Shown piece after piece: positions 12,094-61,445 of a stretch of 64,000 nucleotides of DNA. Numbering within the stretch: the stretch's first letter is position 1; each line of letters begins with the position of its first letter. The stretch spans positions 22,333,168-22,397,167 of the forward strand of contig OZ316891.1 in assembly GCA_973895155.1 (NCBI GenBank), given 5' to 3'. The position numbers and the translations under genes are program-made. The notes beneath the pieces are model-generated. The model did not search any database. It was not told where the DNA came from and saw only the letters and a list, made by a program, of their open reading frames with translations. The DNA comes from Marsupella aquatica. Lineage: Eukaryota > Plantae > Marchantiophyta.

Positions 12094-14730
12094 TTAGCTT
12101 CTTGGAGGAAGCTTGCCCATCGCTGCATGTAATCGCTCGTCTGGTATGGTTCTGTAATTCTCATAAAAGTCCAAGATTTCCATGGATATATTTTTAATCT
12201 GAGAGACAATCAAAACATGCTTTGTGAGACGTAATCAGGAGGAAGCAAGATAGATCTCTGGAGTACTATGCTAGAATTCTAGGCCACTTTCCATTGCAAA
12301 AGACTCGATTGAGTTCATGCTTCCCACCAACGCACCTAAACACCTGTCAGAACAATCTGTCTGCTGATAATGCCTCTGGGAGCAGTCAAACATGCCAGGT
12401 GTCCATAAATTAGAAGTGGAACTAAACCTGAGAATCGCGGGGGAGAATTGTTTTTGAAGAATATGTAGGTTTATAACCTAGGTGAGCAACATACCACATT
12501 CATATCAACTCGCAACTCTTCAAACCAGGCACGTGTCTCCTTGTCTTTGATGACACTCGCAATATATATACAAGCTAGGGCAATCATGAATGGTGGGTAC
12601 ATCAATATGAGATCTGTTCTGTATGAATCATTTACTATGGACCTGAAAATGACGAACAGAATCATGTTTGGTTAGAATGGCAGCTCTAACTTTGCTTTAC
12701 CACCGACCAAAGTTATTGTCTAAAACTTAAGAGGAGAGTCGAGTTGGGTTCCATCAACTGCAAATGAAGATGCACTCTTAACAACTAAGCTATTCTTCGA
12801 ACCCGACAAAATGTGCCCTAGCAGGTTGCTTTGGGAAACTTACCAGACTGTTTGAATAATATCATTCAACCCAGCATCAGCCAAAAGCCTGCATTGTAAC
12901 TCACCATTGTCATCCCCTATATAGTTTGATTATGTCACCACAATGCATTAAATAGCGCATAAGAAAACAGTTGCCTGTTGTCCTACAATTTAAATTAAAG
13001 GTTGCCAGATACAAGGGATGTGAAGGTCCTACAGAATTAAAGGTCGATATGGGTGATAGATGACTAGATAATAATCTAGAGCTTCCAACAGTCGCATCTC
13101 CATCTCCAGAACATCCTTGATTTCGTACTTGAATCCTTTTTCTTCAGATGCTGCAGCTAGACAAATATACAGAAATAGCCTCTATTGGATTCAAGATAGA
13201 AAAATCCAAGCCTTGCAAGCTGGTACCCACGAGAGTCGCCGGTAACCAGCTAAGCCACGAGACATGCATAACAGTCTACCAAATCTCCAATAGTATTTTG
13301 AAGCTATACAGCATCGTTCTTGCATTGAACCTAGTTTTTCAGAGACCACTCTGGTATAAGTGTAGAGACGAGTCAGATACAGCGAAACAATCATCTCTCT
13401 GCCTTAACTCTTGAAATCGATCTGGCACTGGAGGACGTATTAAGATTAATTACAGGTGATACGCTACTCAAAAAGATGTTGTGGAATCCTATCCAAGGCG
13501 TAGTAAGAAGCGGATGGGCGACATTACTGAACCGGTGAGTAGGGAGTAGGTGGAGCAAGACGAACATACGGAGCTTCTTCATGTAAAAAACAAGCAGCTT
13601 CGCCTGTACAGTGCTCTCTTCCGCTTTCGATGCTAAATATAAACATGTTGGAGCAACTAATCTTGGATCATACTCCGCGAAACTCTTTCTACAAGAATTG
13701 AAGACACAGTAATCGAAGGTCAGAATACAACAGAAAATTGTGTCCTGTCCAGAAGACAAGGAAGAATTAAGAAATAACAAAAACCAATAGTAGTCTTCAA
13801 TGACTGGCACCAACCTCGTGTATATACGCCTGAAATAAGCAATGGCTGTCGCCACCACACTGCACGGTCAACAGCCAACCCAGCAAGAAAGATTAGCGAA
13901 AGGAGATAATATAAGTTGCCTGGAAATCGTCTGGGTTTCATGAACATGCCATCGAGCTAAGTCTTAGCAAGCCAAGTTTGGAATAGGAATATTATGGAAG
14001 TGGGCACCAGGGTGCAACAGAATGGTATAGCGCTCACCGTTGTCGCACTTTCACATTTTGAGCCAGATGCCTGATATCTGGAGACAGGAGGAACAAACCA
14101 GATCAACTTCAGAATGATACGCAAAAAAAACGGACCCATTCTGGTCACTGAAAGGTAAGGCGGGGAAATCTCGTTTGTTACTAACATGTAGATAGATGAA
14201 TTTTGATCAGCTTAAGGTCCTCTGCAGTGAATCCACGTTCTTGATCAGCAGGCAGAACATGTCCAACCTCATCCGCATCCAAAAGCTTCTTGCTGCATGC
14301 ACAACCAGGAACCATTGTGAATACCATGACACGTCTTGAGAAACCAGATGCCTGCCTTCAGACCGCATTGTGAAGCTCTTGATATGTATGATATGCAGAT
14401 CACAACGCTTCCCGAAATATGACGAACTGATACAATCAGAAGCTAAAGAAAGCAATTAATATACTTGGTAAAATACACTTCATGGGGAATTAATATAGAA
14501 CAACTCCAAACGGTAGAGGCCACACCCAGCAGTCAATCTCTTCTTCTACACAGCAATAAGGCACTTACGCGAAACTAAATTGATGATAAAAATAATTTAG
14601 AACGGGAAGACCATGATCAACATGGGAGAAACCCTACTAGGTTCGCCCAGCAGCGAAGAACACAGGGAAAAAGGTAGGGAAACAGCAGAGACGCGCACCA
14701 GTGGGACGAGGTCCAAAAATTGGCAGCCAT
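12094..14730 (-). CDS. CYCC1: Cyclin C (Mediator CDK8 module), 9 exons
   Basis: Exons 14730-14699, 14292-14186, 14077-14038, 13859-13815, 13688-13570, 13156-13033, 12888-12844, 12642-12495, 12198-12094 (254 aa). Motifs MAANFWTSSH, VKVRQRVVATAIAYFRR, DPRLVAPTCLYLASKAEES, LEALDYYLVIYHPYR and WSIVNDSYRTDLILMYPP. Confidence 0.95.
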
Positions 14731-15460: not shown

Positions 15461-17034
15461 ATGGTGCTCAATTGGACCCACACTTTTGTGGTCCATTGGG
15501 AGTTTGGGGAACTAACATGATAATTGTGGCTCTTGAAATAATTTTTAGTTTTGCACCTGCATGGAAACTACATGAGGAGGAGACATAGAAAAAACACAAG
15601 CCTAAACATGTCATATTAACACTGAAAATTAATTCCATGGAATTTATCTCTCTCCATTTCATGCTGAAAACTCAACCAAATGGCCAAAAATTCACTGTCA
15701 CTTTGATGTAAGTGAGGTTTGCTTACTAGTCTAGCATATCCCCAACTTTGAGTTTATGAATATTAGGTTATTGCAATTAAACTCAAATTTTGGAAAATGT
15801 GTTTATGGGTTTCAAATACCAACCTTTGTGGTCCATGGTTTCACATTCTGGATCCTGTCACCCTTAAGGAACTTTTTCTTTTGGCAGTTATTTATATAAT
15901 CAAGGTAAAACATGTCACAGCTAATTTGATGTTGCTATAATGGCAAATACATGTGACTGGCTCATAATACCAAATTTCTTCATTGCCAGCTCAGAATATC
16001 CAATTTCTTTGGTGATGAATGAATTTATATTTTGTATACCTGAAGAGTTGCATGTTCTTGGAAGTTAAGCCCGGATGGACCAAGGGGGTTGTTTTGCCCA
16101 TCCCCATGGACTTTGTTACACACACTGCTTCACTTTACACCCAAAATCCACATTGTCAGGCTATCCTAAGAAGCATGTTTCACTTTTGAGAAGTACGCCC
16201 CGAGTAGTTTTTCCAGGTGTCTTGACCAACTTCAAAATGCTAGTTTTCACCAAACTTGTGCATTTATTTAAACAACTTTTGGATCTCTGTGCAGCTCAAA
16301 AATTTCCAGCATGTTCTTTGATGTCCAATCTATTACCTAACAAAGTTTCATTTTTTCTGAAACCATTTGGTCCACTGCTGGTGAGTGCAAAGATGATCAA
16401 ATATTATAAACTAATCTCCAATGGAAGCTTCACTTTTGATGTTCTCAGTCAGTCCATCCCTCCTTTGGACAATCCATGGGGGCTTCATAGCAAACCCTTA
16501 GTCTATTCAGGCTTTACTTTCACATATTCTTTGTTATGTTCTTCTTTGGATTTAGTAACAACATCCCTTTTAATTTATTTTAGAAATTGAATTCTCACAC
16601 ATTCCAACCACACCTTTATTTTTAAATTGAACTTTTCATTTCCCTGATTTAGTAGTGGCATAATTTTGAGGATGCGATAGTTGTCAAATTTACAAGCCTT
16701 GTATCTGGCAGGGTTGAACCCAAGACTTCAGGTTTGCAGTCCAGAGTCCTGTTTACAGTGCTCTGGTCCATAATCCCCAGACAATGAGGGCTTTAGCTCC
16801 AGTTGCATTCTGATCATTGCGCTCGAGGTTTGAGGGGCTATTAATGCCCATAGTGCTCTGACAAAAAGTAGAGGAGAAGTTTCATAATGGGCGAATTCAC
16901 ATGTTGACTCTGTATTCTTCAGCTGGCTTTGGTCATTTGACCAGGGGATAAACCTAGAACCCACAGGTGCCAGGTTCAATCCCCCCTCCACACGCAAGGG
17001 GTGTGGAGGGTATGTGTCTGTACGTGTGGGTGGA

Positions 17035-17492
17035 GTGTAGCGCTTTGGGGCCCTGGTTCAACCCTCTCTCCCTCCTGGTCTGGGTCCTTGTAGGATCCCT
17101 GTGTATGGTCGACCCTTGTGGGCTACCCTACAGTGGTACATGGTCTATCCTGTGTTGGATGGGTCTACTTTGGGCTTGAAGGCTACCCTACAGTGGTACA
17201 TGGTCTATCCTGTGTTGGATGGGTCTACTTTGGGCTTTCAAGTGTAGCGCTTTGGGGCCCTGGTTCAACTCTCTCTCCTTGTAGGTCTGGGTCCTTGTAG
17301 GATCCTATGTATTGGTCCACCCTTGCGGGCTACCCTACAGTGGTACATTGTCTATCCTCTGTTGGATCGGTCTACTTTGGGCTTTCAAGGCAAACAATGT
17401 TGGATAGGGGTGTGTTGGATGGGTCTACTTTTTATCCTCTTTTTATCCTCTGTTAGATGGGTCTACTTCCGGCTTTCAAGGCAAACAATGTT
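17035..17492. repeat. Nested direct repeats (60 bp tandem unit inside a ~207 bp duplication)
   Basis: ggctaccctacagtggtacatggtctatcctgtgttggatgggtctactttgggctt at 17121 and 17181, with a variant at ~17327; gtgtagcgctttggggccctggttcaa at 17035 and 17242. Confidence 0.9.
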
Positions 17493-17839
17493 GACTCTGC
17501 ATTCTTCTCCATAAATATACTGAAATCTGAAGGGCACTAAGAGTATAGTAACCCCTCGTAAGAGTGGTAACAGGGAATGTTGTCTAGGAAGCTGTAGTTT
17601 AACAAAGGCATTCAGTGCACAAATCTCTGGGCTAATACGAGCCTTCCTTTCTGCGGTTTCGTTTTAACAGTTCTTCAGCCCACATCTATCAATCCAACTC
17701 TACCAAACTAAGCAATCAACCCTGTCATAGAATAGGGGGCAAAACATTGTGAGTGCAAATGCGACAAGGGTGAAGAAAAAGAGAGAGCCATCTTGTGCTA
17801 ACAAATCATACAGATTTATTACTTCTACTTAAGCTTTCA

Positions 17840-19256
17840 TCATGCCAGCTGGGGAAGAGGAGGTGGTGGACCAAAATTCACAACACTACTTTCGTTAAAC
17901 TTGATCCCCCTACTTCTCATATCTTCAGCGAAATCTCTAGCGGTATCTAGCCTATCTGCCTTGACATAGGCATTGAACATCACTGCACAGATCTTCGGGG
18001 TAATACGCATCTTTCTTTCTAACATTTCGTTAAACAATTCTTGAATCTCATCTATCAATCCAAGTCTACCAAACCAAGCAAGCAAACCTGTCATTGAATC
18101 AGGGCCAGGCCTTAATCCGGCATTTTCTAGCTCAACCACCACACTTACAGCTTGAGTCAACAACTCTCTCTTCTCATACGCAGCTACTAGAAGGCAGATT
18201 GCACGGTCATCTGGAACAAGCCCATTCCTTCTTAAGCTCTGGAACACCGTTGTTGCTTTCTCTGCGTCGCCAACTCTTCCATAGCCATCTAATAGAGCAG
18301 TGAAAGCCTTGGTATTGGCCTTCAACCCTCGTGAAAGCATGAGATCAAAAACTCTCTGTGCTTCATCTGGTCGCTCCGCACGAGCATATCCATTGATCAA
18401 ACCACAGAATGTTTCCACAGTTGCTGGTACACCTGCAGCATCCATCACTTCAAGCAATTGCTCAGCTTCCCAAGGGAGGCCGCTGTAGCCATAAGACGAC
18501 ATTAGGGTATTGTACACCATTGTGTCTGGTTCGTGTCCTTCAGACTTTATTCTATTAAACACTTTGATTGCCCGCTCCAAGAACCGCGCTTTTCCATACA
18601 ACCCTAGCATAACGGTAAGGATTACCATGTCCACGGCAAAGCCACGTGCTTCCATCTCCTCCAAGAGCCTTTCTGAATCTTCAATGCGGCCAGCCTTACC
18701 ATATCGCTCAATCAGCTTAGCATAATCACGTTTGTTGACGTCAAACCACTCTTCATTGAACGACCATTCAGAAAGCTGCAAAAGAGGAACAACAAGGGTA
18801 TTAGGGAATGGGTGAATCTCAGGGTTAGCAGTACACGGCATTATCTTGAAAAGAAACGACATTTACCTTGAAAAGGAGTTCCCGCGATCCACTATTATCA
18901 AACTCTTTCAACACATCCAACCAATCACGTCTTACTGGATTCATGCCTGCCACCCATCTCTCTAATGTGGCCAGGAGAATTCCATCGCCGCTTTCGTCTT
19001 GCATCCATTTCTTTAACTCCTTGGTAATCTGCATTGCTCGCTTTGTCATTTTGCTGTACACGAGGGGCTCATCTATCCACACCTTCCTTTTTGTTGCCTG
19101 GGTCTGTATCATGAGTCTTTGCTTTGATCCCCCCTCCCCTGCTCGATTTCCTCCCAGATGTACAGACTGTCGACCCCAACATGGGACACCAGATACTTTA
19201 CGCCCCTGGAACAAGTCCATTTCAGCATAATTGCGAGGACTTGTAGTCAGAGCCAT
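17840..19256 (-). CDS. P-class pentatricopeptide repeat protein, At1g01970-like, 2 exons, probably organelle-targeted
   Basis: Exons 19256 (or in-frame ATG 19307)-18867 and 18775-17840, about 441 aa. Tandem 35-aa PPR motifs (DYAKLIERYGKAGRIEDSERLLEEMEARG, VYNTLMSSYGYSG, AFTALLDGYGRVGD) and an N-terminal WVAGMNPVRRDWLDVLKE block resembling At1g01970. Confidence 0.9.
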
Positions 19257-19288
19257 TGCCAAATTTTGGTCAGGTAGCAGAAGAGTTA

Positions 19289-19825
19289 CTAGCCCCAGTC
19301 CACCCATGGCAGATCCGGCCAACCACCTTCAGGCGGAGGGTGCAGTGACGGTGGCAACTGGCTCTCTTTAATAGGATGCACCACCTCGCCTGCAAATTGC
19401 GAGAGCCTTAGAGAAGGTCCACCTCTAATTCAGAAGACATTCAGAATTCGACCTCACCAGAACCTCATTCACAACAGATTCAAGACACGGGTTCGGGGTG
19501 CAAGAGCCAAGCCCTATCTGACTCATCTGGCTGCCAAAGCATTCACACATTTCAATTGAAATCGCCGGCTCTCACTGCAGATTATTATGCAAAGAGGGAG
19601 GACAATGCAATGGTGTATTCACATACCAATTCCTGGAGGGCCGAACGTGACGAACGCAGGTGCTGGTGGAGCAGAGTTCACTGTCGTCTGTGGGGCACCT
19701 TTGAAGGAATCAAACCAGGCCTTCTTCGCGCGCTGATGCAAGGAACCTTGTGTGTGGCGCTTGCGCGAGGCAGGGGTGTCGTGGAATTGATTGCCACAAT
19801 AATCACAATAGTATTTCGGCGGCAT
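19289..19825 (-). CDS. ZMAT5: ZMAT5 / U11-U12 snRNP 20K-like matrin (U1-type) zinc-finger protein, 2 exons, 99 aa
   Basis: Exon 19825-19627 encodes MPPKYYCDYCGNQFHDTPASRKRHTQGSLHQRAKKAWFDSFK. A GT-AG intron leads to exon 19389-19289, encoding GEVVHPIKESQLPPSLHPPPEGGWPDLPWVDWG*. The LPPSL.PPP.GGWP...V.WG tail is the ZMAT5 signature. The ORF track misses this second exon. Confidence 0.9.
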
Positions 19826-19984
19826 ATCCTCCCCAAAAACTCTTCGAGTCTACACAATCTGTGATCTATTTCCTCACTTCCTCGAGAAATTCACTTCCTT
19901 AAGAGACCTTCACCTACTTCACTGTGCAAATCTAAGCGCTTGGGGATTGTTGAGGACTGGACATCATCTTCCTAGAGCGCTGAA

Positions 19985-20410
19985 TCACACTGCAGCATCA
20001 AAATCCCTATGCATCCACCCACCCAGAGAAAGGATGGTACTCAGCCCTACTGTATTTTCTCCAACAGGGTTTATGAAAACGAGTAAGCTAACCCATTCCC
20101 ATGAGGAAAAGGACCAATTTACTAAACAGGGCAAACGAAGTACAGGGGAGAAAAAGCACAAGAGGAGAACCATCAAACTCAAAAGAAGAGGTCACACTGC
20201 AGCATCAAAATCCCTATGCATCCACCCACCCAGAGAAAGGATGGTACTCAGCCCATGGGGCCCTACTGTATTTCTCCAACAGGGTTTATGAAAACGAGTA
20301 AGCTAACCCATCCCCATGAGGAAAAGGACCAATTTACTAAAACAGGGCAAACGACGTACAGAGGAGAAAAAGCACAAGAGGAGAACCATCATATTGAATA
20401 GAAGAGGGCA
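19985..20410. repeat. Tandem duplication of ~207 bp immediately upstream of ZMAT5
   Basis: tcacactgcagcatcaaaatccctatgcatccacccacccagagaaagg...aaaagcacaagaggagaaccatca begins at 19985 and 20192; the copies are near-identical with a small indel. Confidence 0.93.
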
Positions 20411-21709
20411 ACTGCAGACCCCCAAAACCTAGAAAATAATATCTAACAATAGTGTACTATGTAATTAAGCCAATCTACCAGTGGCTTCATTCTACAGAGG
20501 AGGTCATGACCTATTTTGATTATGAAATATGGTATAGATTGTTTCCCTGATGTCCAATAGATGGAGGTAAACCAAAGCTTGGATGGACCCAGATGTTGTG
20601 AGTCCTTGCCCATCGCCATGGACTGCGTAAAGTCATCAGCCATCAGCAAAAGAAAATGAAGCATGGCAAGTGGAACCAATGGCCATGTACCTAGGCATGA
20701 CAAGGGTGTAGTTCTATAAGAAAGTACGCCCCAAGTGCACTGCACATAACAACACTAAATTTTGTTCTCAAGAGATTGAGATAAGGCAAAACAGACCCTC
20801 TTTGGACCCAAACAACTAATACTATTGAATCTAGGGTAACCGGATGAAATAACTGAACAAACAGGGAGACCCTTTACAGGTCGATTCTAAGTCAAAAGTG
20901 TAAAATATGGTATCTCAGTATACTTTGATGTTCTGAGAAAGTGTGGAAATGCTATCCGAGTCAGACAAAATTGTAGAACATGCTATCCAAGTCTGCTTTG
21001 ATGTTCTGAGAAAGTTCATAGGAACTTCACAAAGACATAAAGGGTCTCTAACCAAACTCATATGAAGCTCATATGAAGCTTGAGTTTCATATGAGTTTGG
21101 TAAGATTTCGGTCACCTGGAAAATCTCTGGAATTGAGGAAACCAGTGTCCTGAACTGGAAGAGTTCTGTACTGGAGTCAACAATCAGGCAATGCAGATCT
21201 GCCGCTTCTCACCATGGGCAGCAGTGCAGCAGCCCCACAGTCAAGGCTCCACTGTGGGCCTGTGGCCTTTCGCTGCAAAAGGCAAACAGCAGCCGCTTGC
21301 TCCCTCTACCAAGCGAAAGCCTCCACCTCACGCAAAGGATCGTCACCAGCATGATGTACACAATCTGTCGATTACGGTCCTGACCAATCATTGATTATGA
21401 AGGTTTGCTTGGTAAGTGTAACTTCGTACTCCAATGGGTACAAATAACTATCAGACCACCTGCTACGGTAGCTATTTGCTTTTGAGGAAATCTGCCCTTT
21501 GGCGACTGAACCCGTCATTCTTCCTCCTGTTGTCTGCGGGAGCACGGGACAGTACAAAACCATGTTTCTTATTAGAGGGTGATTCAAACCAGCACACGTC
21601 TGGAGTCCTCTTTGTGTCTCTTTGTGTCTGGAAATTGGGATTGCTCAAGTGACTGGGATTTCTCTTTGTTCTCTGGATGCCGTTCAGCTATAGCCAGAGC
21701 AGCATCCTC

Positions 21710-22656: not shown

Positions 22657-25450
22657 ATGAGCTTCCTTGTAAGGCAGCAGCGTTCATTAGCCACGCGGGC
22701 CTCGTCGCTGATATATACCCGCTTATCTTCTTCAGCAGCTTCTGCGGACGTCTGCAAGTCGGATTCCTCAGTATGTGTCTCATTTCATGAATCCCGTCTT
22801 TCGTCACCATATTTGCCAATACTGTTGTGACATTGCTAGATTGGATGGCTAAGGCCAGACACAGCTACGAGAGAGCAAATCATGACAAACTGAAACAGAA
22901 TCCTGGCTTACCTGATGGACATATTCGCCTAAAAAATAATTAAAAATGCCTTTTTACACTTCACAGACGTTTGGTACTACTGCGATTCGGTTGTGTAAAT
23001 TTCTCTACGAAGGAAGGGTTAAAAGCACTTTATATCCAGCGAATAACGAATGCTTATTTTCCATAACTGTTGTGGTTTAGAGACCACGGATCCCACGATG
23101 ACTGTAAAATTGGCAGGCGGGACAGCTTTGTGAGCATGAAACTTTCACAACCGCTGACTAATTTTTTAATGACTTTTCATTTTCTTGGAATTTCCAGGAG
23201 CATGGCGCGGGCAGTGACAACAGAAGAAACCAAGGGGCGCCAAGCGTAACCTCATCTCTTGAATATCAAACGTCAGCAGCCATTATGCCACGGATGGTTG
23301 GTGGTAAGCTATACCACAGTGCCTCGCTTGCCCACAGCCCTGAACCTGAAAGCGAATCCCCCATCGATGATACTTTCACTCATATGGAAGGTCGGGGTTC
23401 CACTCATTTGTCCGCATCTACGTCACAGCACCATTTCGAAGAAGCCATTGTTTCTGATATGTTGGTGGACAGTCATGGAAGGCGCCACAATTACCTGAGA
23501 ATCTCTCTCACTGAGCGTTGCAATCTGCGATGCAAGTATTGTATGCCTGCTGAAGGTGTCGAGCTAACAGCGAGTGAAAATCTTCTGGCCAAAACCGAGA
23601 TCTTGCGCTTGGCAAGTATATTTGTTTCAGGAGGAGTGAGTAAAATTAGGTTGACAGGTGGGGAGCCAACCGTAAGGTCAGACATCGAGGATATATGTGA
23701 ACAACTGAGTTCACTACCAGGATTAAAGACTCTAGGAATTACCACAAACGGATTAGTTCTGGCACGGAAGCTCCCCAGATTGAAGGCTGCAGGATTGAAT
23801 TCACTTAATATCAGTTTGGACTCTCTTGTTCCAGCTAAGTTTGAGCTTCTAACGAGACGAAAGGGTCATGCCAAGGTCCTTCGGTCCATCGAAACGGCTT
23901 TGGAGTTGGGTTACAATCCAGTGAAGGTACTCCTCTCATTTAAGCCCATTGGACTCGGTCTCATTAATGCTGACAATGAGATTTTGTACCGAAGGGTATG
24001 GTAGTAAAGGTCACAATGTCAGTTGATTTCTGTGCACATATTTCGAGTGTCACTTTACAAGTTCATCTGAACTGGTTATATGATACCAAATCCATTCCTT
24101 GCACGGAAAAAGATTACTTTAGAGGGCTGTGCGGATCACCCTTTTCAATTTGTGAAATTGAGGCTTTCTTCGTGCACGAGTAATGAGTGGGGAGCCGGTT
24201 TCAAGTCTTTACCCCCGGGTGCCTTTTGTGACAGGTCAATATTGTTGTGATGCGGGGATTCAATGATGATGAACTTGAAGATTTTGTTGAGTTGACGAGA
24301 ACGAAGCCCATAAATGTGCGTTTTATTGAGTTTATGCCGTTCGATGGAAATGTTTGGAGCTCAAAGAAATTAGTGTCATACATGGAGATGCTTGGAAGGC
24401 TGGTAAGTGCCATTTGAGGTTTACGATTTACAAATGTTGCTGATTATTCGAGAGGATTAGAAAATCTACCTGTTTTTGGTTTTTCCTCCGTTCAACGGTC
24501 AACTGTTTGCATGAGCATACCCACAAGCAAAGGGCACACCTTTCACCAAGAGTGTGTGGATAAATCAGTGGCATCCTTTGTTTTTATGCAGAAAGACAAG
24601 TATCCTAGTCTGACGAGACTCCGAGATCATCCAAGTGAGGTTGCAAAGAATTTCCAGGTGGATGGATTTGTGGGCACAGTTTCTTTCATAACATCAATGA
24701 CAGAACATTTTTGTGGCGGGTGCAACAGACTACGGCTAATGGCCGATGGCAACTTCAAAGTTTGCCTTTTTGGTCCTGCTGAGGTGGGTATCCTCACCTT
24801 GTTTGTCTTCTGCATACGTTGTCGAAATATGGATGGCAGACCGAGTTATGTTTATGTCCTGATCTTTGCATGCAATATCATAGAGATTTATTACAATCTT
24901 TGGTTGCCTAGCATTTTCCATCCATGTCAGCTTTAACTTGCTCGTGTCCTGTTAATAAGATATCCTATGTAAGCAAGGAGAATCATCTAGTCCTGACACT
25001 CCTGACGGTGATGATTTTTTTGGCTTCACAGGTCAGTTTGAGGGATGCAATGCGAGTTGGGCTGGATGACTCTCATTTAAGGGGTATAATCAATGATGCA
25101 GTACGTTCAGCGTCCTTACCTGTTGTTGGATGTTCACCTCGATTCCTGCCACTGCTCGCACTAATCTAGAACAGAATTTGAGGTGCTTTTAAATGCATAA
25201 TTGATTCTAGTGTTTTCTGACGCGTGCCTTCCTTTTGGGATCCTCGACGATTCCTGCCACTGCTCGCACTAATCTAGAACAGAATTTGAGGTGCTTTTAA
25301 ATGCATAATTGATTCTAGTGTTTTCTGACGCGTGCCTTCCTTTTGGGATCCTCGACGTCGTCGCAGGTTAAGAGGAAAAAAGCTGCTCATGCTGGCATGT
25401 TTGATTTGGCTAAAACACAGAATCGGCCCATGATACATATCGGAGGGTGA
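22657..25450 (+). CDS. CNX2: GTP 3',8-cyclase (molybdenum cofactor biosynthesis, MoaA/MOCS1A homolog), mitochondrial, 6 exons
   Basis: Exons 22657-22770, 23198-23926, 24235-24402, 24592-24783, 25032-25100, 25367-25450 (451 aa). Exon 1 [25 protein letters not shown] looks like a mitochondrial presequence. Radical-SAM motif [42 protein letters not shown]...KVCLF and C-terminal RPMIHIGG*. Confidence 0.95.
25140..25357. repeat. Perfect 108 bp tandem duplication in the last CNX2 intron
   Basis: cgattcctgccactgctcgcactaatc...ttttgggatcctcga starts at 25140 and 25248; the copies appear identical. Confidence 0.95.
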
Positions 25451-27093: not shown

Positions 27094-28206
27094 CTAGAGC
27101 TCTCCATACCACTCCTTGTGAAATTGAGATAGAAAATTTTCCATGAACTTGTGTCTTCTTTCTGCACGCTTCTTACCTGCCTGAGTCTTCATCAGATGTT
27201 TTAATTTGAGAAGCTTTTCATGAAAGTGATTGATGGTAGTTTGCTTCGACGTGTTGTTCATGTACTCGTCTTTCGTCAACTTCGAGCGTGGAAGAATTGC
27301 AGGGTCATGCATAGCATTATTTCTGCTACCTCCATACGTGAAGGTTCTTCCTATTCCAATTGCACCCATTGCATCCAGGCGGTCAGCATCTTGCACAACT
27401 CTAAGCTCTGGAACACACGTCTGATTTGATGAACCAGATAACTCTTCCTTAAACCCCATGGTCCGGATGATAGTCAAGACAGTCTCCCGCTTTTCAGTCT
27501 CAACTCCATACTTGACGAGGAACTCTTCTGCTGTTGGAAAGTCTCTTGGACCCTTTGAAGCATATTTGTGGTCATCTGCAGGGCAATGAAGATGCTGTTA
27601 GCAGTCCAAAGTCTTTCACCGACAAAAGACAGAAAACAGCAATGAGCTTCAGGGTCTAAATCCATCCATAGCATAATGCAACCGGTCCATCCATCCACCC
27701 ATCAAGCTATGGAGCTCACCGATATCATGCAACAGAGCCGCAAGCTCCACGACGTACAAACTATCGGAGGGGAGGCCTTCTTCAGACGCGAGAGAAAGAG
27801 AAAGGCTGCGAACGCGGAAGGCATGGAATGGGTCGTGCGAGCCATCCCAGGATCCCATCACGTTTTGGACTAGAGCTTCCGCCGCTGCCACCACCGCTTC
27901 CTTCGTCTTGACTGCCTCCCCATCCTTCACAGCAGCAGTACGCCGGCCGTTTTGAGGCTCGTGCTGCTGTTGGGCTTTCGCTTTGGTCTCCGCATTCCGT
28001 CTGAAAGAGTAGTCCGCGCACTCGGGTGAGGAATTGCTCGCATTGACGCAGTCGGAGAGCACCTCCTCCGCATCAGGAGTCATTGCTGCCTCCATCGCAA
28101 TGCAATTCTCTTCGACTCGCTCCGTCCCAGGTTCTTCACGTCGTGTCGTGGAACGGTCATCGCTGGCTCGAATTGGATTGCCGAAGGCCAGAATCTGTTC
28201 CAGCAT
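27094..28206 (-). CDS. HD-domain metal-dependent phosphohydrolase (YpgQ-like), 2 exons
   Basis: Exons 28206 (or 28095)-27720 and 27575-27094 (up to 322 aa). Motifs WDGSHDPFHAFRV, VELAALLHDIDDHKY, VVQDADRLDAMGAIGIGRTFTYGG and TINHFHEKLLKLK. Confidence 0.92.
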
Positions 28207-28614
28207 TGCCAGGAGCTTCGCCGTTTCCCGGACTCCGCAAAGTCTGTCAATATCGACTCTTCTTCCATCAGCCGCCGCTCCCTACTACGTCTCTCAAACT
28301 TGCTTTCCATGGGCCCTTTTTATTTTTCATTTATTATTATTTTTATTTTTTCAATAAAACGAGACGGAGCCCGCGAAACTTTCGATGGGCCATTTTTAAC
28401 TAAAATTCGCTACTATTTTTTGTATCACTACTGTAGCCCCATGACCCGTTGCTTGAACTTCAATAAAAGAAAAATTTTGTTCAATAAAATTATGCTGTCA
28501 TCCTTGTTTTTAATCTTCATTTCAGTCTTGTCTTTATTCACATTTTATGTCACTTTTGTACATTCTCATTTAAAATTTTGACCTTATTAAGTCTCATTAT
28601 CAATTTTGTTTACA

Positions 28615-36748: not shown

Positions 36749-38659
36749 ATGGAGAGCGTGATTCAGCTCGTGAACAGGATACAACAGGCATGTACGGTGC
36801 TGGGAGACTACGGTGGGGCGGATGGCGCTCTCCCGACGCTGTGGGAGTCGCTCCCGTCCGTCGTTGTTGTCGGAGGTCAGAGCTCCGGTAAGTCATCTGT
36901 CTTGGAGAGCATCGTGGGAAGAGATTTCCTGCCCAGAGGGTCTGGAATCGTGACGAGGCGGCCTTTGGTGCTGCAGCTGCACAAGACGGAAGATGGGCGG
37001 GACTATGCGGAGTTCCTCCACATGCAGGGGAGGAAGTTCTCGGATTTCCACACGGTCAGGAAGGAAATCGCCGATGAGACGGACAGAATCACTGGTCGGA
37101 GTAAGATGATATCCCCCGTCCCGATTCACCTCAGTATCTATTCCCCGAACGTTGTGAATTTGACCCTCATCGATCTTCCAGGGCTGACTAAGGTCGCCGT
37201 GGATGGGCAGCCCGATAGCATCGTTCATGACATCGAAAACATGGTTCGGTCTTATGTTGAGAAGCCCAATTCCATCATCCTTGCTATTTCCCCTGCGAAC
37301 CAGGATATTGCCACTTCGGATGCTATAAAGCTGGCAAGGGAGGTTGATCCCAACGGTGAACGGACGTGGGGTGTCCTGACGAAGCTGGACCTCATGGACA
37401 GGGGAACGAATGCTCTTGAGGTGTTGGAGGGTCGGTCATACCGATTGCAGCTGCCCTGGATTGGAGTAGTGAACCGTTCCCAAGCCGATATTAACAAGAA
37501 CGTGGATATGATCGCTGCTAGGCGTAGGGAGCGGGAATACTTCCAGTCTAGTTCAGATTATTCACACCTAGCTAACAAAATGGGGTCCGAGTACTTGGCC
37601 AAGATGCTGTCCAAACATCTCGAGCAAGTGATCAGGTCTCGAATTCCGAGTATTCTCGCACTTATTAACAAAACTATTGATGAACTTGATGGAGAGATGA
37701 ACCAGCTGGGGAAACCAATTGCGGTTGATGCCGGTGCTCAGCTGTACACCATATTAGAGCTTTGTAGAGCTTTTGACCATGTCTTTAAGGAGCATCTTGA
37801 TGGAGGGCGCCCAGGTGGAGAGCGGATTTACGGAGTGTTTGACAACCAGCTCCCTGCTGCCTTGAAGAAGCTTCCTTTTGACAAGCATCTATCTATGCAG
37901 AATGTGAAGAAAGTTGTCACCCAAGCAGATGGTTTCCAACCGCATTTGATTGCTCCGGAGCAAGGGTATCGACGTTTGATCGAGGGCTCCATCACTTACT
38001 TTAAAGGACCAGGAGATGCTGTCGTTGATGCAGTACACTTCATTCTCAGAGACCTGGTGCGACTGTCGATTCAGGAGACACATGAACTAAGGCGGTTCCC
38101 GACTTTGCAAGCTGAGCTAGCAGCTGCAGCAACTCACGCATTAGAGATTTTCAGAGAGGAAAGCCGTAAAACAGTGCAGAAGCTTGTGGACATGGAGGCC
38201 AGTTATCTTACGGTAGAGTTCTTCCGAAGGCTTCCACAAGAAATTCAAGGCAAGCCGGCACTTCCCGGTGATCGCCCTGAACGCCCTGATCGGCCTGATC
38301 GCCCAGGGTCACAACAAGGTGGCCTAGCCAACAATCCAGCCTCGATGAGCTTGGACCGTTACAATGACGCGCACTTCAGACGCATAGGCTCCAATGTCTC
38401 GGCATACATTGGGATGGTAATGGATACGCTGAGAAACTCACTTCCCAAAGCTGCAGTGCACTGCCAGGTCAGAGAGGCCAAGAGATCAGTGCTTGACAAT
38501 TTCTACACGGACATTGGCAAGAAAGAGGCGAAGCAATTGGCAGCACTCCTAGATGAGGACCCAGCGACGATGGAACGGAGGATTGCCGCTGCAAAGAGGC
38601 TGGAATTGTACAAGAATGCCCGGGATGAGATAGATTCTGTGGCCTGGAACAAGGCTTAA
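36749..38659 (+). CDS. DRP1: Dynamin-related protein 1 (phragmoplastin/DRP1 family), single coding exon, 636 aa
   Basis: Uninterrupted ORF with G1 [29 protein letters not shown], a middle domain and GED ending ...[18 protein letters not shown]. No PH domain or PRD, which fits DRP1 rather than DRP2. Confidence 0.97.
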
Positions 38660-57580: not shown

Positions 57581-59072
57581 GAGCGCCTTCGAGGGGGATC
57601 CTGCAATTCAATTAGACACAGTAGACTGTACACATCTGCGTGCGTGCGTGCGTGATGAGCGCACAGCAGCTCTTTGCAATCGGAGAAGAGCTGCTACTTT
57701 GCGTTGTCTTGCGTGGCGTATGAGCTTGCGCAATGGTTGCCTTTGCCTTGCGTCGTGTTTTGCCGTAGCAAACGAGCTTCTTGGGGATGGTGATGCGGAG
57801 CTAGATGCATCAGTGGCTGTGAAGAAGCTTTGGTGCGCATAGTCGAGCTCAGAGAGCGAGCGAGAGAGGAGCTGTGAGGTGGAAAGCGGGACGGGAGGGG
57901 ATTGCGGAGGCGTAGTTGTGGTCGGGATTGGAGACTCGGAGGAGGCTATGATGTGATTAGTCGTTGAGTTGAGAATGATTTGAGGAAGGGAGAGTGTCAA
58001 GACCGTGATGAATGTTGTCCCAGAGCAGGTACTTTGTGGAGACGTCGATTGAGGAGGATGAGACACGCAGGACTTGTGACATTCTAAGTTGAGGACTTCG
58101 TTCAGGTGGTTCGTGATTTTGGGAATTTGAGGGTGTTGCTCTTCTTGGCACGCAGCAGCTGGACGGTGCGGAGCTTCTGCTTGGATCGAGGAGGAGGACG
58201 TTGTGGGGATGCTTCTTTTTAGGTCAGTAAGTGTACTTTCAGCTGCCCGCTTCACCATTGCATGCAACGGTCGTAGGTCACTGGGCTGGGCCCTCTCAGC
58301 CCCTCACTCTTCTTCAGGGCTAGGGGAAGGTGTACTGGATCACTTGCTGTAGAGAAACAGTCTGGGGGAGTGTTATTAAGAAGCGTGGAGCAACAGGTCT
58401 ACTGTCAGACAGAATGGTGAAGAGATACTGAGTGGCACACCATTGAGACTTCCGTCGTTCACTTCTGCACTTTGTCTTGGGGGCGTTGAATTCCTCTCCA
58501 CCGAATGGTTCTAGTTGTTCTGAAGAGGAGAGGCATGAAAAATTTGCGGAGCAGAATCGAAGGACATAGCGGGAGCAGCACTAGGGCAGAAGAGTTCACT
58601 CACATGGCCGGTTTTCTTGCAATGCATCCTCGTGGAAGTGTCTGGGTGGTAGGCAGATAAGTCGAGGCGGTTTTTTCGGGTGGGCTGATTGCCTGGAAAA
58701 TGCCTCCGGACAGAAACTCTGTGGGATCCGACCACGGAACTTGGATCGTCCCAAAGTGGATATGTTTAGGAGGCTCCGGACTAGACTAGACAAAGTGTGG
58801 CTCTTTTTATCATCACAATTGCTTAAGATCGACACCTAGGAAGTGCTCACGAATCAGTCGCGTTAGACCTCTCACTTGTGGGTCTTGTTCCGAAATGCAT
58901 CGACGGGTTTCATCGTAATTCTTCCTTCTGAATCTGTCAAGTTTTGCTTCTGAAGAATCCGGAAAGATTGGGCTTTCCCTCTGACCCTACATTGATGGGT
59001 GCAACTTTTTCAGGTCTCGCAGCTCTTAGCCATCTTGCCGCCTCGCTTTGAGTGAACCCCTGTGACCCCAAG

Positions 59073-61445
59073 ATGTACGAGCCTTACGATTATGGGGAGC
59101 CAAGGGAAGAGGGCGGATATCGTGTCAAGCCTTATCGTCGGTCCCAACCCAGGGAGGACACTATCCCGGCCTCACGAGGAGGGGGTGGGCTCAAGAAGCC
59201 GTCTCGATGGGTGTTCATCTCGAGGAAGGCCGATATTGGAATTTTCCTGGTACTGCTGCTCGGCGCAGGTCTTACCATCATGTGGTTTATAAGTCAGCTT
59301 CCCGTCTTCGTCGAGACTGCATCGTATCACTACCACTGGGCGAAGGACGTTTATGCGACCTGGGGCACTCCTTCAATGCGGTGGCTCTTCATTAACGTAG
59401 TTGTGGGCGTGATTGTTGCTACCTCTGGCTTGCTTTCTGCGTTCGGTGGCGATAGTAGTGGACACCAGACAGATCGGCCCGGATATGATAAAGGTGTTTC
59501 ATTCCGGGGTTCTGATACAGGCGTTACATACGAGGCCTCCGAACGACCATACAATGCAAATCCAACTGAGGCGAGATTCACCGGCCATGGCTACGAGTCC
59601 CCTCTCTACAACCCTTACAGTAGTGAACCGGTTAGGAATAGATTGCACCATGAGAACTCGTTTAACGCTTGGAACAACCGTGGGGACGACTCGCCCTTGG
59701 AGCAGAATGAGGAGAGGGAAAGAGAGAGGTACCGTCATCGGGGAGTACATACTGGTGTGGACGTACCAGTTTATGCCAGACCGGTAGATCCCGAGGTGAT
59801 GCGTGCAGCTAGGCCCGTGTCAAGACAGGCATCGCAGAGGAGAGGGATTCCAATGCCTGCGGAGGATGTCCCAATGTCAAGGGAGATACCGAGGGAGATG
59901 GCCTTTGAGACACCGCCACCCAGGGACATGCCTGGGGAGTTGCCCAGAGAGATGCCCAGGGAGAGTTCTAGGGAAATCCCCAGGGACATGCCTAGGGAGT
60001 TACCAAGACATATGCCTGGAGAGATGTCCAGGGAGAGTGTTAGGGAAGCTCCAAGGGACATGCCTCCTGCGGAGGAGTCACCACCACCGGAAGAAACACC
60101 TGTGTCAAGGGACATTCCAGCGCCACCGGAAGCCCCAGCTGCTGCAGAGGGTACTCTTCCTCCTCAGTCACCTGCTGCAGCTCCAGAGCTAGAAGTGTCT
60201 GAGGGTATAAGTCATCATCCGGGTGGGTCCAGGAAGGAAGATGCTATTGAGATCATTTCGAAAGTCTACGATCATGTTCCTGGATTGGAGGACGTGGGAA
60301 CTGAGTTCCACCGGCCGAAAACAGATCCGGCAGTTCAATTTGCACCGATTGAAGAGACTTCGGCTGAGAGATCTCCTATCAAACCGGAAGTCCTTCATAA
60401 GTCTCACACATTCACTCTTGGCCGTGTGATTCGTCGCGATCAGCTTGCGGATTTCATTGAGCCACTGTCTAGGAAGCTCGAAGTCATTGGTAGGAAGGTC
60501 CGAGACCCACATAGAAGGTCCGATTCCCATTTGGATTCTGTGAGCAAGTCGAGGGATTTACCGGCTCCTCCTCAAGTGTCAGCCAGTAATTCACTCCCAG
60601 TCATGCAGGCTACTGCAGTAGTGGCCGGAAACTCTGCAGCTCAGCCCGCGACACATCGCCGGAGGCTCTCGGCGGAAGCCATTCCCGTTGTCGCACACAG
60701 TGGCACTACCGGAGGGACGATTCCACATTATGTAAAACAGAATTCTGTGCCGGTGATCAAACTTCCGTTCCCTCCGATTGCGACTAAGGCATCTCCTCCT
60801 CCGTCTCCTCTTTTGAAACAGCGGTCCATTGTGTATCCTCCGGCATTGCTCTCACAAGCCTCCACTGCAGAGGAAGATTTATCTCCCCCACCCTCTCCCC
60901 CAATTGAGGAGGCCATTCCCCCTCCCCCTCCTCCACACCTTAAACTTCCTCCTCTAAAGATTTCAAAGGATGCTCATCTCTCCTCTATAACTTTGAGTGA
61001 AGAGTTGCCTAGTTTCAAATTTTATGTTCCAACCTCAGATTCCACAGAACCCGGGCCTGCTGCAAAGGCTTCTAAAATACTGGCGGAAAAGGTCTCTTCT
61101 AGTGAGGAGAAAACGCCTCTTTCCAGTAAGCATTCAAGGACGTCTTCCTCACACATAGCCTCCACACCCTCTCCATCGACACCAGAGACTGGCTCGTCAT
61201 CTTCTGGCCAAGACGAGCAATCACTGATGATCAAACCTCGAAGATCGAATGCTGGGGACGAGAAGGTTCAAGAAGGGAAGGAAGAGTCATCACCCTTGGA
61301 TAAACAGGATAGTCCTTCAGTCAAGGATGATGATCTGCACCAGCAAATTGAGAATTTTCTAGCCAGGTTTCATGAGAATTGGAGGCTCCAGAGACAGGAG
61401 TCCCTCGCGAGGTACAAAAAGAGGCTCGTGGAATTGGATGAGTGA
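59073..61445 (+). CDS. DUF4408 + DUF761 (cotton-fibre-protein-like) membrane-anchored disordered protein, single coding exon, ~790 aa
   Basis: First ATG at 59073, preceded by a tttttcag acceptor at ~59013 (5' UTR intron). N-terminal TM segment, DUF4408-like WGTPSMRWLFINVVVGVIVATSG, a long Pro/Ser/Glu-rich linker, and DUF761-like DDLHQQIENFLARFHENWRLQRQES at the C-terminus. Confidence 0.85.
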   Translation: MYEPYDYGEPREEGGYRVKPYRRSQPREDTIPASRGGGGLKKPSRWVFISRKADIGIFLVLLLGAGLTIMWFISQLPVFVETASYHYHWAKDVYATWGTPSMRWLFINVVVGVIVATSGLLSAFGGDSSGHQTDRPGYDKGVSFRGSDTGVTYEASERPYNANPTEARFTGHGYESPLYNPYSSEPVRNRLHHENSFNAWNNRGDDSPLEQNEERERERYRHRGVHTGVDVPVYARPVDPEVMRAARPVSRQASQRRGIPMPAEDVPMSREIPREMAFETPPPRDMPGELPREMPRESSREIPRDMPRELPRHMPGEMSRESVREAPRDMPPAEESPPPEETPVSRDIPAPPEAPAAAEGTLPPQSPAAAPELEVSEGISHHPGGSRKEDAIEIISKVYDHVPGLEDVGTEFHRPKTDPAVQFAPIEETSAERSPIKPEVLHKSHTFTLGRVIRRDQLADFIEPLSRKLEVIGRKVRDPHRRSDSHLDSVSKSRDLPAPPQVSASNSLPVMQATAVVAGNSAAQPATHRRRLSAEAIPVVAHSGTTGGTIPHYVKQNSVPVIKLPFPPIATKASPPPSPLLKQRSIVYPPALLSQASTAEEDLSPPPSPPIEEAIPPPPPPHLKLPPLKISKDAHLSSITLSEELPSFKFYVPTSDSTEPGPAAKASKILAEKVSSSEEKTPLSSKHSRTSSSHIASTPSPSTPETGSSSSGQDEQSLMIKPRRSNAGDEKVQEGKEESSPLDKQDSPSVKDDDLHQQIENFLARFHENWRLQRQESLARYKKRLVELDE

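Follow-up and report, generated by a model that had tools for sequence, protein, structure and literature searches.

We analyzed a 64,000-nucleotide (nt) stretch of the Marsupella aquatica genome (contig OZ316891.1, positions 22,333,168 to 22,397,167), referred to here as the window, with a focus on two neighboring genes on its minus strand. The upstream open reading frame (ORF), ORF1, encodes a homologue of ZMAT5, the U11-20K protein of the minor spliceosome, and the downstream one, ORF2, encodes a pentatricopeptide repeat (PPR) protein. They are separate ORFs on the same strand in different frames, ORF1 ends at its own stop, and we argue below that the two likely share one mRNA. The locus is laid out here in window positions, from the leader to the poly(A) element; X1 to X5 denote sequencing runs that match the window, and organisms A and C are the related organisms behind three of them.

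19826..19978, minus strand: 5′ leader of the likely shared transcript, minimum extent; pieces of X1 contigs reach 19953 and 19978
19932..19967, minus strand: short upstream ORF of 11 codons with two tandem AUGs
19825, minus strand: start ATG of ORF1 (ZMAT5-like) in the context gatATGC, with a purine (G) at -3 and C at +4
19627..19825, minus strand: ORF1 exon 1, 199 nt, matrin-type zinc finger and a short linker
19390..19626, minus strand: ZMAT5 intron, 237 nt, GT-AG, with the U2-type donor GTATGT
19289..19389, minus strand: ORF1 exon 2, 101 nt, C-terminal LPPSL/PPEGG/DWG motif followed by TAG
19289..19307, minus strand: ORF1/ORF2 overlap, 19 nt out of frame; the ATG at 19307-19305, in gccATGG, is the likely PPR start
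19257..19288, minus strand: read as a spacer in the first-pass annotation, likely PPR codons 7-17
19254..19256, minus strand: in-frame ATG of the PPR frame, likely an internal Met, which is ACG in organism C
18867..19307, minus strand: ORF2 (PPR) exon 1, predicted targeting region and family-specific N-terminal motif
18776..18866, minus strand: PPR intron, 91 nt, GT-AG, skipped by an X1 contig
17840..18775, minus strand: ORF2 exon 2, P-class PPR array and the stop at 17842-17840
17815..17820, minus strand: candidate poly(A) element AATAAA for the whole unit, 20 nt past the PPR stop

Spliced ORF1 has 99 codons and stops with TAG at 19291-19289. The PPR frame is open from 19328 and holds ATGs at 19307, 19256 and 19220, with a product of 459 amino acids (aa) from the first and 442 aa from the second. 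The coordinates that the first-pass annotation had given for both ORFs, their introns, the stop, the ATGs and the 19-nt overlap were all confirmed on the sequence.

Judged by its sequence, ORF1 appears to be a derived ZMAT5 homologue that lacks the CCCH finger, and by homology it would belong to the U11 small nuclear ribonucleoprotein (snRNP). Exon 1 matched Pfam zf-U1 (E 8.8e-12), and among 177,635 PDB sequences its best match was human ZMAT5 (8r7n_E, E 5.6e-11), with the matrin-type finger nearer to ZMAT5 (45.8 bits) than to the best U1-C (31.4 bits). Residues 147-170 of human ZMAT5 were the sole match to exon 2 in a PDB set of the same size (E 0.014), and the C-terminal motif was also matched by tblastn with plant ZMAT5. 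By translation and tblastn, a CCCH finger was absent from spliced ORF1 and from all three frames of the ZMAT5 intron, whereas of 119 full-length plant ZMAT5 proteins, all at least 123 aa long compared with 99 aa for ORF1, 114 contained its pattern. These 119 come mostly from the best 120 of 336 matches to a profile that itself contains the CCCH finger, so CCCH-less forms would be under-sampled among them. The earlier description of both ORFs as intact therefore holds for the open frames but not for ORF1 as a complete ZMAT5. A GT at 19698, the position of the first ZMAT5 intron in other plants (after F-K-G), is read through, and exon 1 continues for 72 nt; this read-through may record how the CCCH region was lost. 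The shortness of the introns, together with the closest ZMAT5 matches, suggests a plant lineage of bryophyte grade, outside the well-annotated groups.

ORF2 is a P-type repeat array without an E or DYW domain in the Pfam search, its exon 2 matching Pfam PPR in seven stretches (E 1.3e-43). In PDB, the mS77/NFD5 protein 9evs_i was matched in one stretch over query residues 5-249 (E 6.1e-37); this match from residue 5 onward, together with an alignment, places the family-specific region before the repeats. PPR exon 1 is 45% identical over 77 aa to a Diphasiastrum protein (P0048). Among the best 150 matches in 1.84 billion representatives, about a dozen extend from the family-specific region onward, and those with names come from Mesotaenium, Spirogloea, Closterium, Diphasiastrum, Pteridium, a conifer cluster, Welwitschia and Spirodela. 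A 16-row tree placed the window PPR loosely with the short Zygnematophyceae and Diphasiastrum forms (91/92 support, 39-42% identity) and in no strongly supported set, and a word-indexed search with PPR exon 2 returned 13 generic PPRs. We take At1g01970 to be a member of the mS77/NFD5 family, with the moss PpPPR_20 presumably on the same plastid branch. Since At1g01970 (PMC3858439) and PpPPR_20 (PMC9459714) are both listed as chloroplast-localized proteins of unknown function, a plastid location may be predicted for the window PPR from this family branch, as a guess of moderate likelihood. The composition of the PPR N-terminus is only modestly like that of a transit peptide.

A sequencing-run search with the window returned five runs from three studies, none of them recorded as RNA. 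Two of these (X2 and X3) probably stem from the source of the window itself, and we left them out of the counts. X1 represents organism A, about 93% identical to the window, and X4 and X5, from one study, represent organism C, about 97% identical; X1 was taken as RNA solely on the basis of its contig skipping both introns, and gaps in its coverage outside the genes were given no weight. The differences from the window given below come from 40 of 62 rows, and the other rows include 8 of the 28 X1 changes in 19090-19388 and 3 of the 23 changes in organism C. One X1 contig (record 2, 935 nt) covers 19953-19906, 19837-19626, 19388-18867 and 18775-18731, running from the leader through the ZMAT5 exons into PPR exon 2, and it skips both predicted introns exactly, at their GT-AG ends (CT..AC on the plus strand). 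A further X1 contig (record 1) overlaps it and goes on to 17897. In organism A both ORFs are thus expressed, their splicing follows the prediction, and a single assembly path links them without a break. Organism C DNA keeps the introns, with one X5 contig (record 23) spanning 17811-19979 and both genes. Because the pairing recurs in the DNA contig of organism C and in the RNA contigs of organism A, it is not an effect of chance or assembly. A bicistronic mRNA carrying the ZMAT5 and PPR ORFs is likely from this sequence evidence, though not proven, since a contig is not a single molecule.

The same contigs bear on an alternative, that of two overlapping monocistronic genes in which PPR transcripts start in ZMAT5 exon 2 or the ZMAT5 intron and ZMAT5 mRNAs terminate within the PPR coding sequence (CDS). 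Contigs cannot reveal transcript starts or ends, so they would hide both an early poly(A) site and a start that falls within exon 2. Plant poly(A) signals are degenerate, and a short leader before the gccATGG at 19307 would allow efficient PPR translation. A PPR promoter in the ZMAT5 intron had been suggested earlier, but the X1 contig joins across this intron and, at 80% likeness, no X1 loose end was listed at the start of exon 2 (19389) or within 19280-19090; X1 thus gives no support to such a promoter. A start within exon 2 would leave a leader of less than 82 nt, with the promoter inside conserved coding sequence, and every ZMAT5 mRNA would still bear AUG 19307. A search for six AATAAA-like hexamers in 19288-18867 found none, and two occurrences lie inside PPR exon 2. 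We regard a pair of overlapping monocistronic genes as unlikely.

If the two ORFs share an mRNA, the start of the PPR becomes central to how both could be translated. The first-pass annotation had proposed re-initiation or leaky scanning and described ATG 19256 as being in good context. The context is indeed good, having a purine at -3 and a G at +4 (as also at the in-frame AUG 19220), but that of ATG 19307 (gccATGG) is at least as strong and is identical to the context of the start of the window's dynamin gene. In X4 and X5, an A>G change at 19255 (plus strand) turns ATG 19256 into ACG in organism C. Moreover, the four X1 changes listed in the supposed spacer (19275, 19272, 19260 and 19257) all fall at third positions and are synonymous in the frame of ATG 19307 (p 0.016-0.018 by chance, given the codons), while in either of the two remaining frames all four would alter the amino acid. 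Farther downstream in the PPR, 4 of the 14 listed X1 changes are synonymous, compared with four of four in the spacer (Fisher p 0.023). X1 carries three insertions or deletions in PPR exon 1, each of 3 nt, and among the changes listed, none falls at the 19307 overlap in X1, X4 or X5. A start at 19256 is unsupported because organism C has ACG there and because, in the 19307 frame, the spacer evolves like coding sequence. Together, this comparison suggests that the probable PPR start is ATG 19307, within the overlap, rather than 19256, that the spacer is coding and that the ORFs overlap by 19 nt. The first residues of the Diphasiastrum (P0048) and Mesotaenium (P0042) proteins are hydrophobic and end in L-L-P or L-V-P-P, as do PPR codons 1-12 counted from ATG 19307; this resemblance, a loose one over codons 1-17, is no more than a lead, as BLASTP did not align these N-termini. 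At least four accessions exist for the one Diphasiastrum protein, a possible sign of alternative 5′ leaders.

Coding-like evolution over 19288-19257 would also be explained by a zinc-finger/PPR fusion, in which exon 1 is spliced to the AG of the ZMAT5 stop codon; this joint is in frame and would give a protein of 518 aa. However, X1 has only the 19626/19388 joint, the acceptor lacks a pyrimidine tract, and exon 2 is conserved. None of the best 150 PPR matches contains a ZMAT5 motif, and a search for longer fused forms of ZMAT5, weak in itself, found seven moss proteins among 18 candidates, none with a PPR domain. We give a fusion protein very little credence.

We favor, with moderate confidence, a model in which ZMAT5 and the PPR share one mRNA and the PPR is translated by leaky scanning to the overlapping AUG 19307. 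Transcription would begin at one promoter upstream of about 19980 and produce one transcript, taken here to be a single molecule, from which both introns are removed. Some ribosomes would initiate at the ZMAT5 AUG, giving a 99-aa protein with the matrin finger and the C-terminal motif; this sequence is observed, and its translation is suggested by conservation. Other ribosomes would pass the ZMAT5 AUG, encounter no further AUG over the next 278 nt and initiate at the gccAUGG of 19307, yielding the 459-aa PPR, a probably plastid-bound product whose start is predicted from the related organisms. By analogy with CDC26-TTM3, the ZMAT5 and PPR outputs would trade off, with ORF1 also holding back the PPR like a brake, and translation of the PPR would shield the mRNA from nonsense-mediated decay (NMD). 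Leaky scanning is the best mechanism because no AUG lies between the two starts in the spliced mRNA and the PPR start overlaps ORF1. Four other ZMAT5 CDSs have 5, 4, 1 and 1 internal AUGs, only 4 of 2000 dinucleotide shuffles lacked an AUG (P=0.002), and the ORF1 context gatATGC is weaker than the PPR context gccATGG. These features of ORF1 and the PPR agree with those described for leaky scanning (PMC11892635). RNA folding gave z below -2 in one of 21 segments, and in none at either start. Frameshifting was considered and rejected, as no slippery heptamer was found.

With one shared mRNA, the PPR could instead be translated after ZMAT5 termination, by ribosomes moving backward to 19307 or forward to 19256 or 19220, the latter two giving shorter N-termini and maybe other targeting. 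AUGs 19256 and 19220 are in frame and in good context, and post-termination ribosomes are described as moving both ways over short distances (PMC11892635), with overlapping upstream ORFs in Arabidopsis promoting downstream in-frame starts that change localization (PMC13405301). An AUG upstream of the ORF1 stop, however, is out of reach for forward re-initiation (PMC13405301), and re-initiation works best after very short ORFs (PMC11892635), while ORF1 has 99 codons. The ACG that organism C has at 19256 and the coding-like evolution of the codons upstream of it also speak against a forward start, and a UGGGA motif was not found. UGGGA is the re-initiation motif of caliciviruses. We consider translation of the PPR after ZMAT5 termination improbable. 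The earlier claim that one mRNA yields both proteins is thus partly supported, as the spliced X1 contig is shared and both ORFs look constrained, whereas a PPR start at 19256 by re-initiation is not supported.

Several points weigh against leaky scanning on a shared mRNA. Overlapping monocistronic mRNAs would assemble into the same two-gene contig, and the RNA support consists of contigs from one run of one related species. The unchanged ATG 19307 and the four of four synonymous changes hold for the 40 of 62 rows listed. The depletion of AUGs is not significant when the same protein is resampled with synonymous codons (29% of 5000 without AUG), a weakness due in part to ORF1 having no internal Met. 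The C at +4 of the ORF1 start also occurs in four ZMAT5 genes that look monocistronic, and for this reason the weak +4 context is not an adaptation. The leader carries the 11-codon upstream ORF with its two AUGs. An exon junction follows 422 nt after the ZMAT5 stop, and the PPR stop 1358 nt after it, a layout that would favor NMD, and backward re-initiation over 19 nt is possible. In CDC26-TTM3, NMD sensitivity is relieved by translation of ORF2 (PMC11892635), and by analogy such relief by PPR translation is expected here too.

ORF1 might also be a decaying ZMAT5 duplicate that now serves only as a 5′ leader or translational brake and makes no working protein. Its CCCH finger is gone, and X1 has a second ZMAT5 that runs past the first finger (loose end at 19699) toward the CCCH cysteine. 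Against decay, the frame, the intron and both conserved modules of ORF1 are retained in three organisms. At least 13 of 237 intron bases differ between organism C and the window, compared with no more than 3 of the 300 bases that code for ZMAT5 (Fisher p 0.0035), and ORF1 looks constrained because of this difference. X1 keeps the ORF1 frame, with exon 1 free of gaps, and its five listed coding changes comprise two that are synonymous and three that are conservative or in the linker. In a study of the human U11 snRNP (bioRxiv 10.1101/2023.12.22.573053), the ZMAT5 zinc finger sits on SmD3 beside the 5′ splice-site region, and residues 136-156 are modeled with PDCD7 and RNPC3. Of these contact regions, ORF1 retains the zinc finger and, in part, the counterpart of 136-156, so what was kept is what makes contacts. 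A decaying ORF1 is very improbable in our judgment.

The second ZMAT5 in X1 is more diverged, with pieces that fall on window positions 19699-19825 and 19281-19315. One piece has 19 differences in 127 nt and departs from the window at 19699, the intron position in other plant loci; beyond it, 30 loose letters, translated by hand, continue to the cysteine where the CCCH finger begins. The other matches 19315-19281 at 34 of 35 bases, including eight bases past the stop, and is then open for 10 visible codons, with 522 nt beyond and the place of its mismatch outside the listing. The two pieces may be separate, and their origin may be either a paralog or another organism present in the sample. The second X1 ZMAT5 likely carries a CCCH finger, and a PPR may follow it as well.

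Of 134 relatives confirmed in a metagenome scan, 80 loci were retained, many of these 80 being U1-C or too short. None of the 80 retained ZMAT5/U1-C loci had a neighbor matching any of nine PPR queries at E 1e-3. We inspected 21 loci with a ZMAT5 stop, 16 of them with at least 1.4 kb downstream, and found neither this PPR nor an AUG in the last 24 ZMAT5 coding bases; these 21 belong to the Sphagnum type (L006 and P0018 are alike in translation) and the angiosperm type and are highly redundant. For Diphasiastrum, where further unannotated copies are possible, the locus tags of ZMAT5 (O6H91_06G052500) and the PPR (O6H91_10G094700) differ (06G versus 10G), which suggests that the genes are on different chromosomes. 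The conservation of the pairing is shallow, as it is kept in organisms A and C and absent from all 80 distant loci. From this comparison, the pairing is common to three related organisms and looks derived and lineage-restricted. A Trp precedes the final I/V-D-W-G in 6 of 119 ZMAT5 tails, all Sphagnum-type, and the codons there contain no AUG. The arrangement likely arose within this plant lineage, aided by a Pro-Trp in the ZMAT5 tail that is able to spell CCATGG.

The first-pass annotation had read the pair as coupling minor splicing to organellar RNA maturation. Given a pairing in 0 of 80 loci, the missing CCCH finger and a second ZMAT5 expressed in X1, we find such coupling to be without support beyond adjacency. 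A broader hypothesis, which we offer tentatively and think rather doubtful, is that an early-diverging plant clade makes U11-20K and an organellar PPR only from one overlapping mRNA. The unit would then predate a ZMAT5 duplication (the second X1 copy has the same tail, the same eight bases past the stop and an open frame), one copy would later have shed its CCCH finger, and the choice among AUGs 19307, 19256 and 19220 would set the level and the organelle of the PPR. If true, this would be a young land-plant bicistron with a birth traceable from separate genes, and a natural test of the need for a CCCH finger in minor splicing.

Elsewhere in the window, a tandem duplication of about 210 nt lies at 19985-20410, just upstream of the 5′ leader, with copies 90-100% identical. 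Organism C lacks one copy (joint 19979/20192), so the duplication is recent; it may touch the promoter of the unit. A MoaA/CNX2-like gene (Radical_SAM, Mob_synth_C) at 23162-24933 (plus strand) is oriented divergently to the ZMAT5-PPR unit, and the ORFs are about 3.3 kb apart. Downstream of the PPR, a repeated element with internal direct repeats occupies 16950-17520, where many X2, X4 and X5 contigs pile up, and an imperfect nested inverted repeat with 25-30-nt arms lies between genes at 21047-21112. A dynamin-related protein is encoded at 36749-38656 (plus strand) in one uninterrupted ORF; plant DRP1 genes usually have many introns, and for that reason this gene is possibly a retrocopy. Ordinary genes encode a Cyclin N-terminal domain protein (13394-13867, minus strand), an HD-domain protein (27097-28281, minus strand) and a DUF761 protein (59052-61442, plus strand). 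Two GTATCCTT sites at 2050 and 1255 (minus strand) match the U12-type donor consensus and are candidates only. General genome compaction was rejected as a cause of the pairing, as other Pfam-matched genes are kilobases apart (98 of 171 ORFs of at least 80 aa scanned). Rfam found no families in the window, and pattern scans of prokaryote genomes and viral contigs gave no matches, an expected and uninformative result.

We conclude that the locus holds a real overlapping gene pair, probably bicistronic and restricted to one plant lineage, which joins a known rare kind. Only a few nuclear mRNAs of land plants are known to code for two complete proteins. The genes are separate in Sphagnum, at angiosperm-type loci and apparently in Diphasiastrum, and the unit shows a route by which a bicistron can arise because it joins genes that are separate elsewhere and the Pro-Trp of the ORF1 tail supplies a strong AUG. 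A gene finder would retain the PPR and discard ZMAT5, so inventories of the minor spliceosome could wrongly score a loss. A conserved ZMAT5 without the CCCH finger also points to the essential parts of U11-20K. The ZMAT5-PPR pair was not found in a literature search, outside which lay most subscription papers and the supplements of PMC13405301 and PMC6380273 (Arabidopsis upstream ORFs); nor was it found in the available parts of PMC6380273 or PMC11897456, and ZMAT5 was not found in the supplements of PMC7896298 or PMC11892635.

Each half of the pair has clear relatives. Like human 8r7n_E and the plant "zinc finger CCCH domain-containing protein 3", ORF1 combines a matrin finger with an LPPSL..DWG motif, and it differs in having no CCCH finger and a length of 99 aa. 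The PPR shares the family-specific N-terminal motif and repeat array of mS77/NFD5 proteins and differs from NFD5-type proteins in having no long N-terminal region. As a unit, the closest comparison is CDC26-TTM3, which is said to have been described by Lorenzo-Orts in 2019 as a bicistronic transcript of plants and green algae. In both, ORF1 encodes a small protein of a large nuclear complex, ORF2 a larger unrelated protein, and one nuclear mRNA carries the two (likely so here), its early stop exposing it to NMD (PMC11892635, PMC13405301). CDC26-TTM3 extends from algae to Arabidopsis and has been shown experimentally, whereas ZMAT5-PPR is lineage-restricted and inferred from contigs, and its ORF1 has its own intron and likely overlaps ORF2. 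The Arabidopsis GPI1 overlapping upstream ORF, of 145 aa, is likewise a long conserved ORF that overlaps the main start out of frame (PMC13405301), and such an overlap therefore precludes forward re-initiation at the main start; the upstream ORF here differs in being a recognizable housekeeping protein, which other plants encode in a gene of its own. Finally, the green-algal bicistrons translated by leaky scanning have a short ORF1, few or no AUGs before ORF2 and a weaker ORF1 context, as seen here, and include one pair with a spliceosomal protein and one with a PPR-like protein (PMC7896298, PMC11892635). ZMAT5-PPR stands apart from them in belonging to a land-plant type genome and in having an out-of-frame overlap in place of a spacer.

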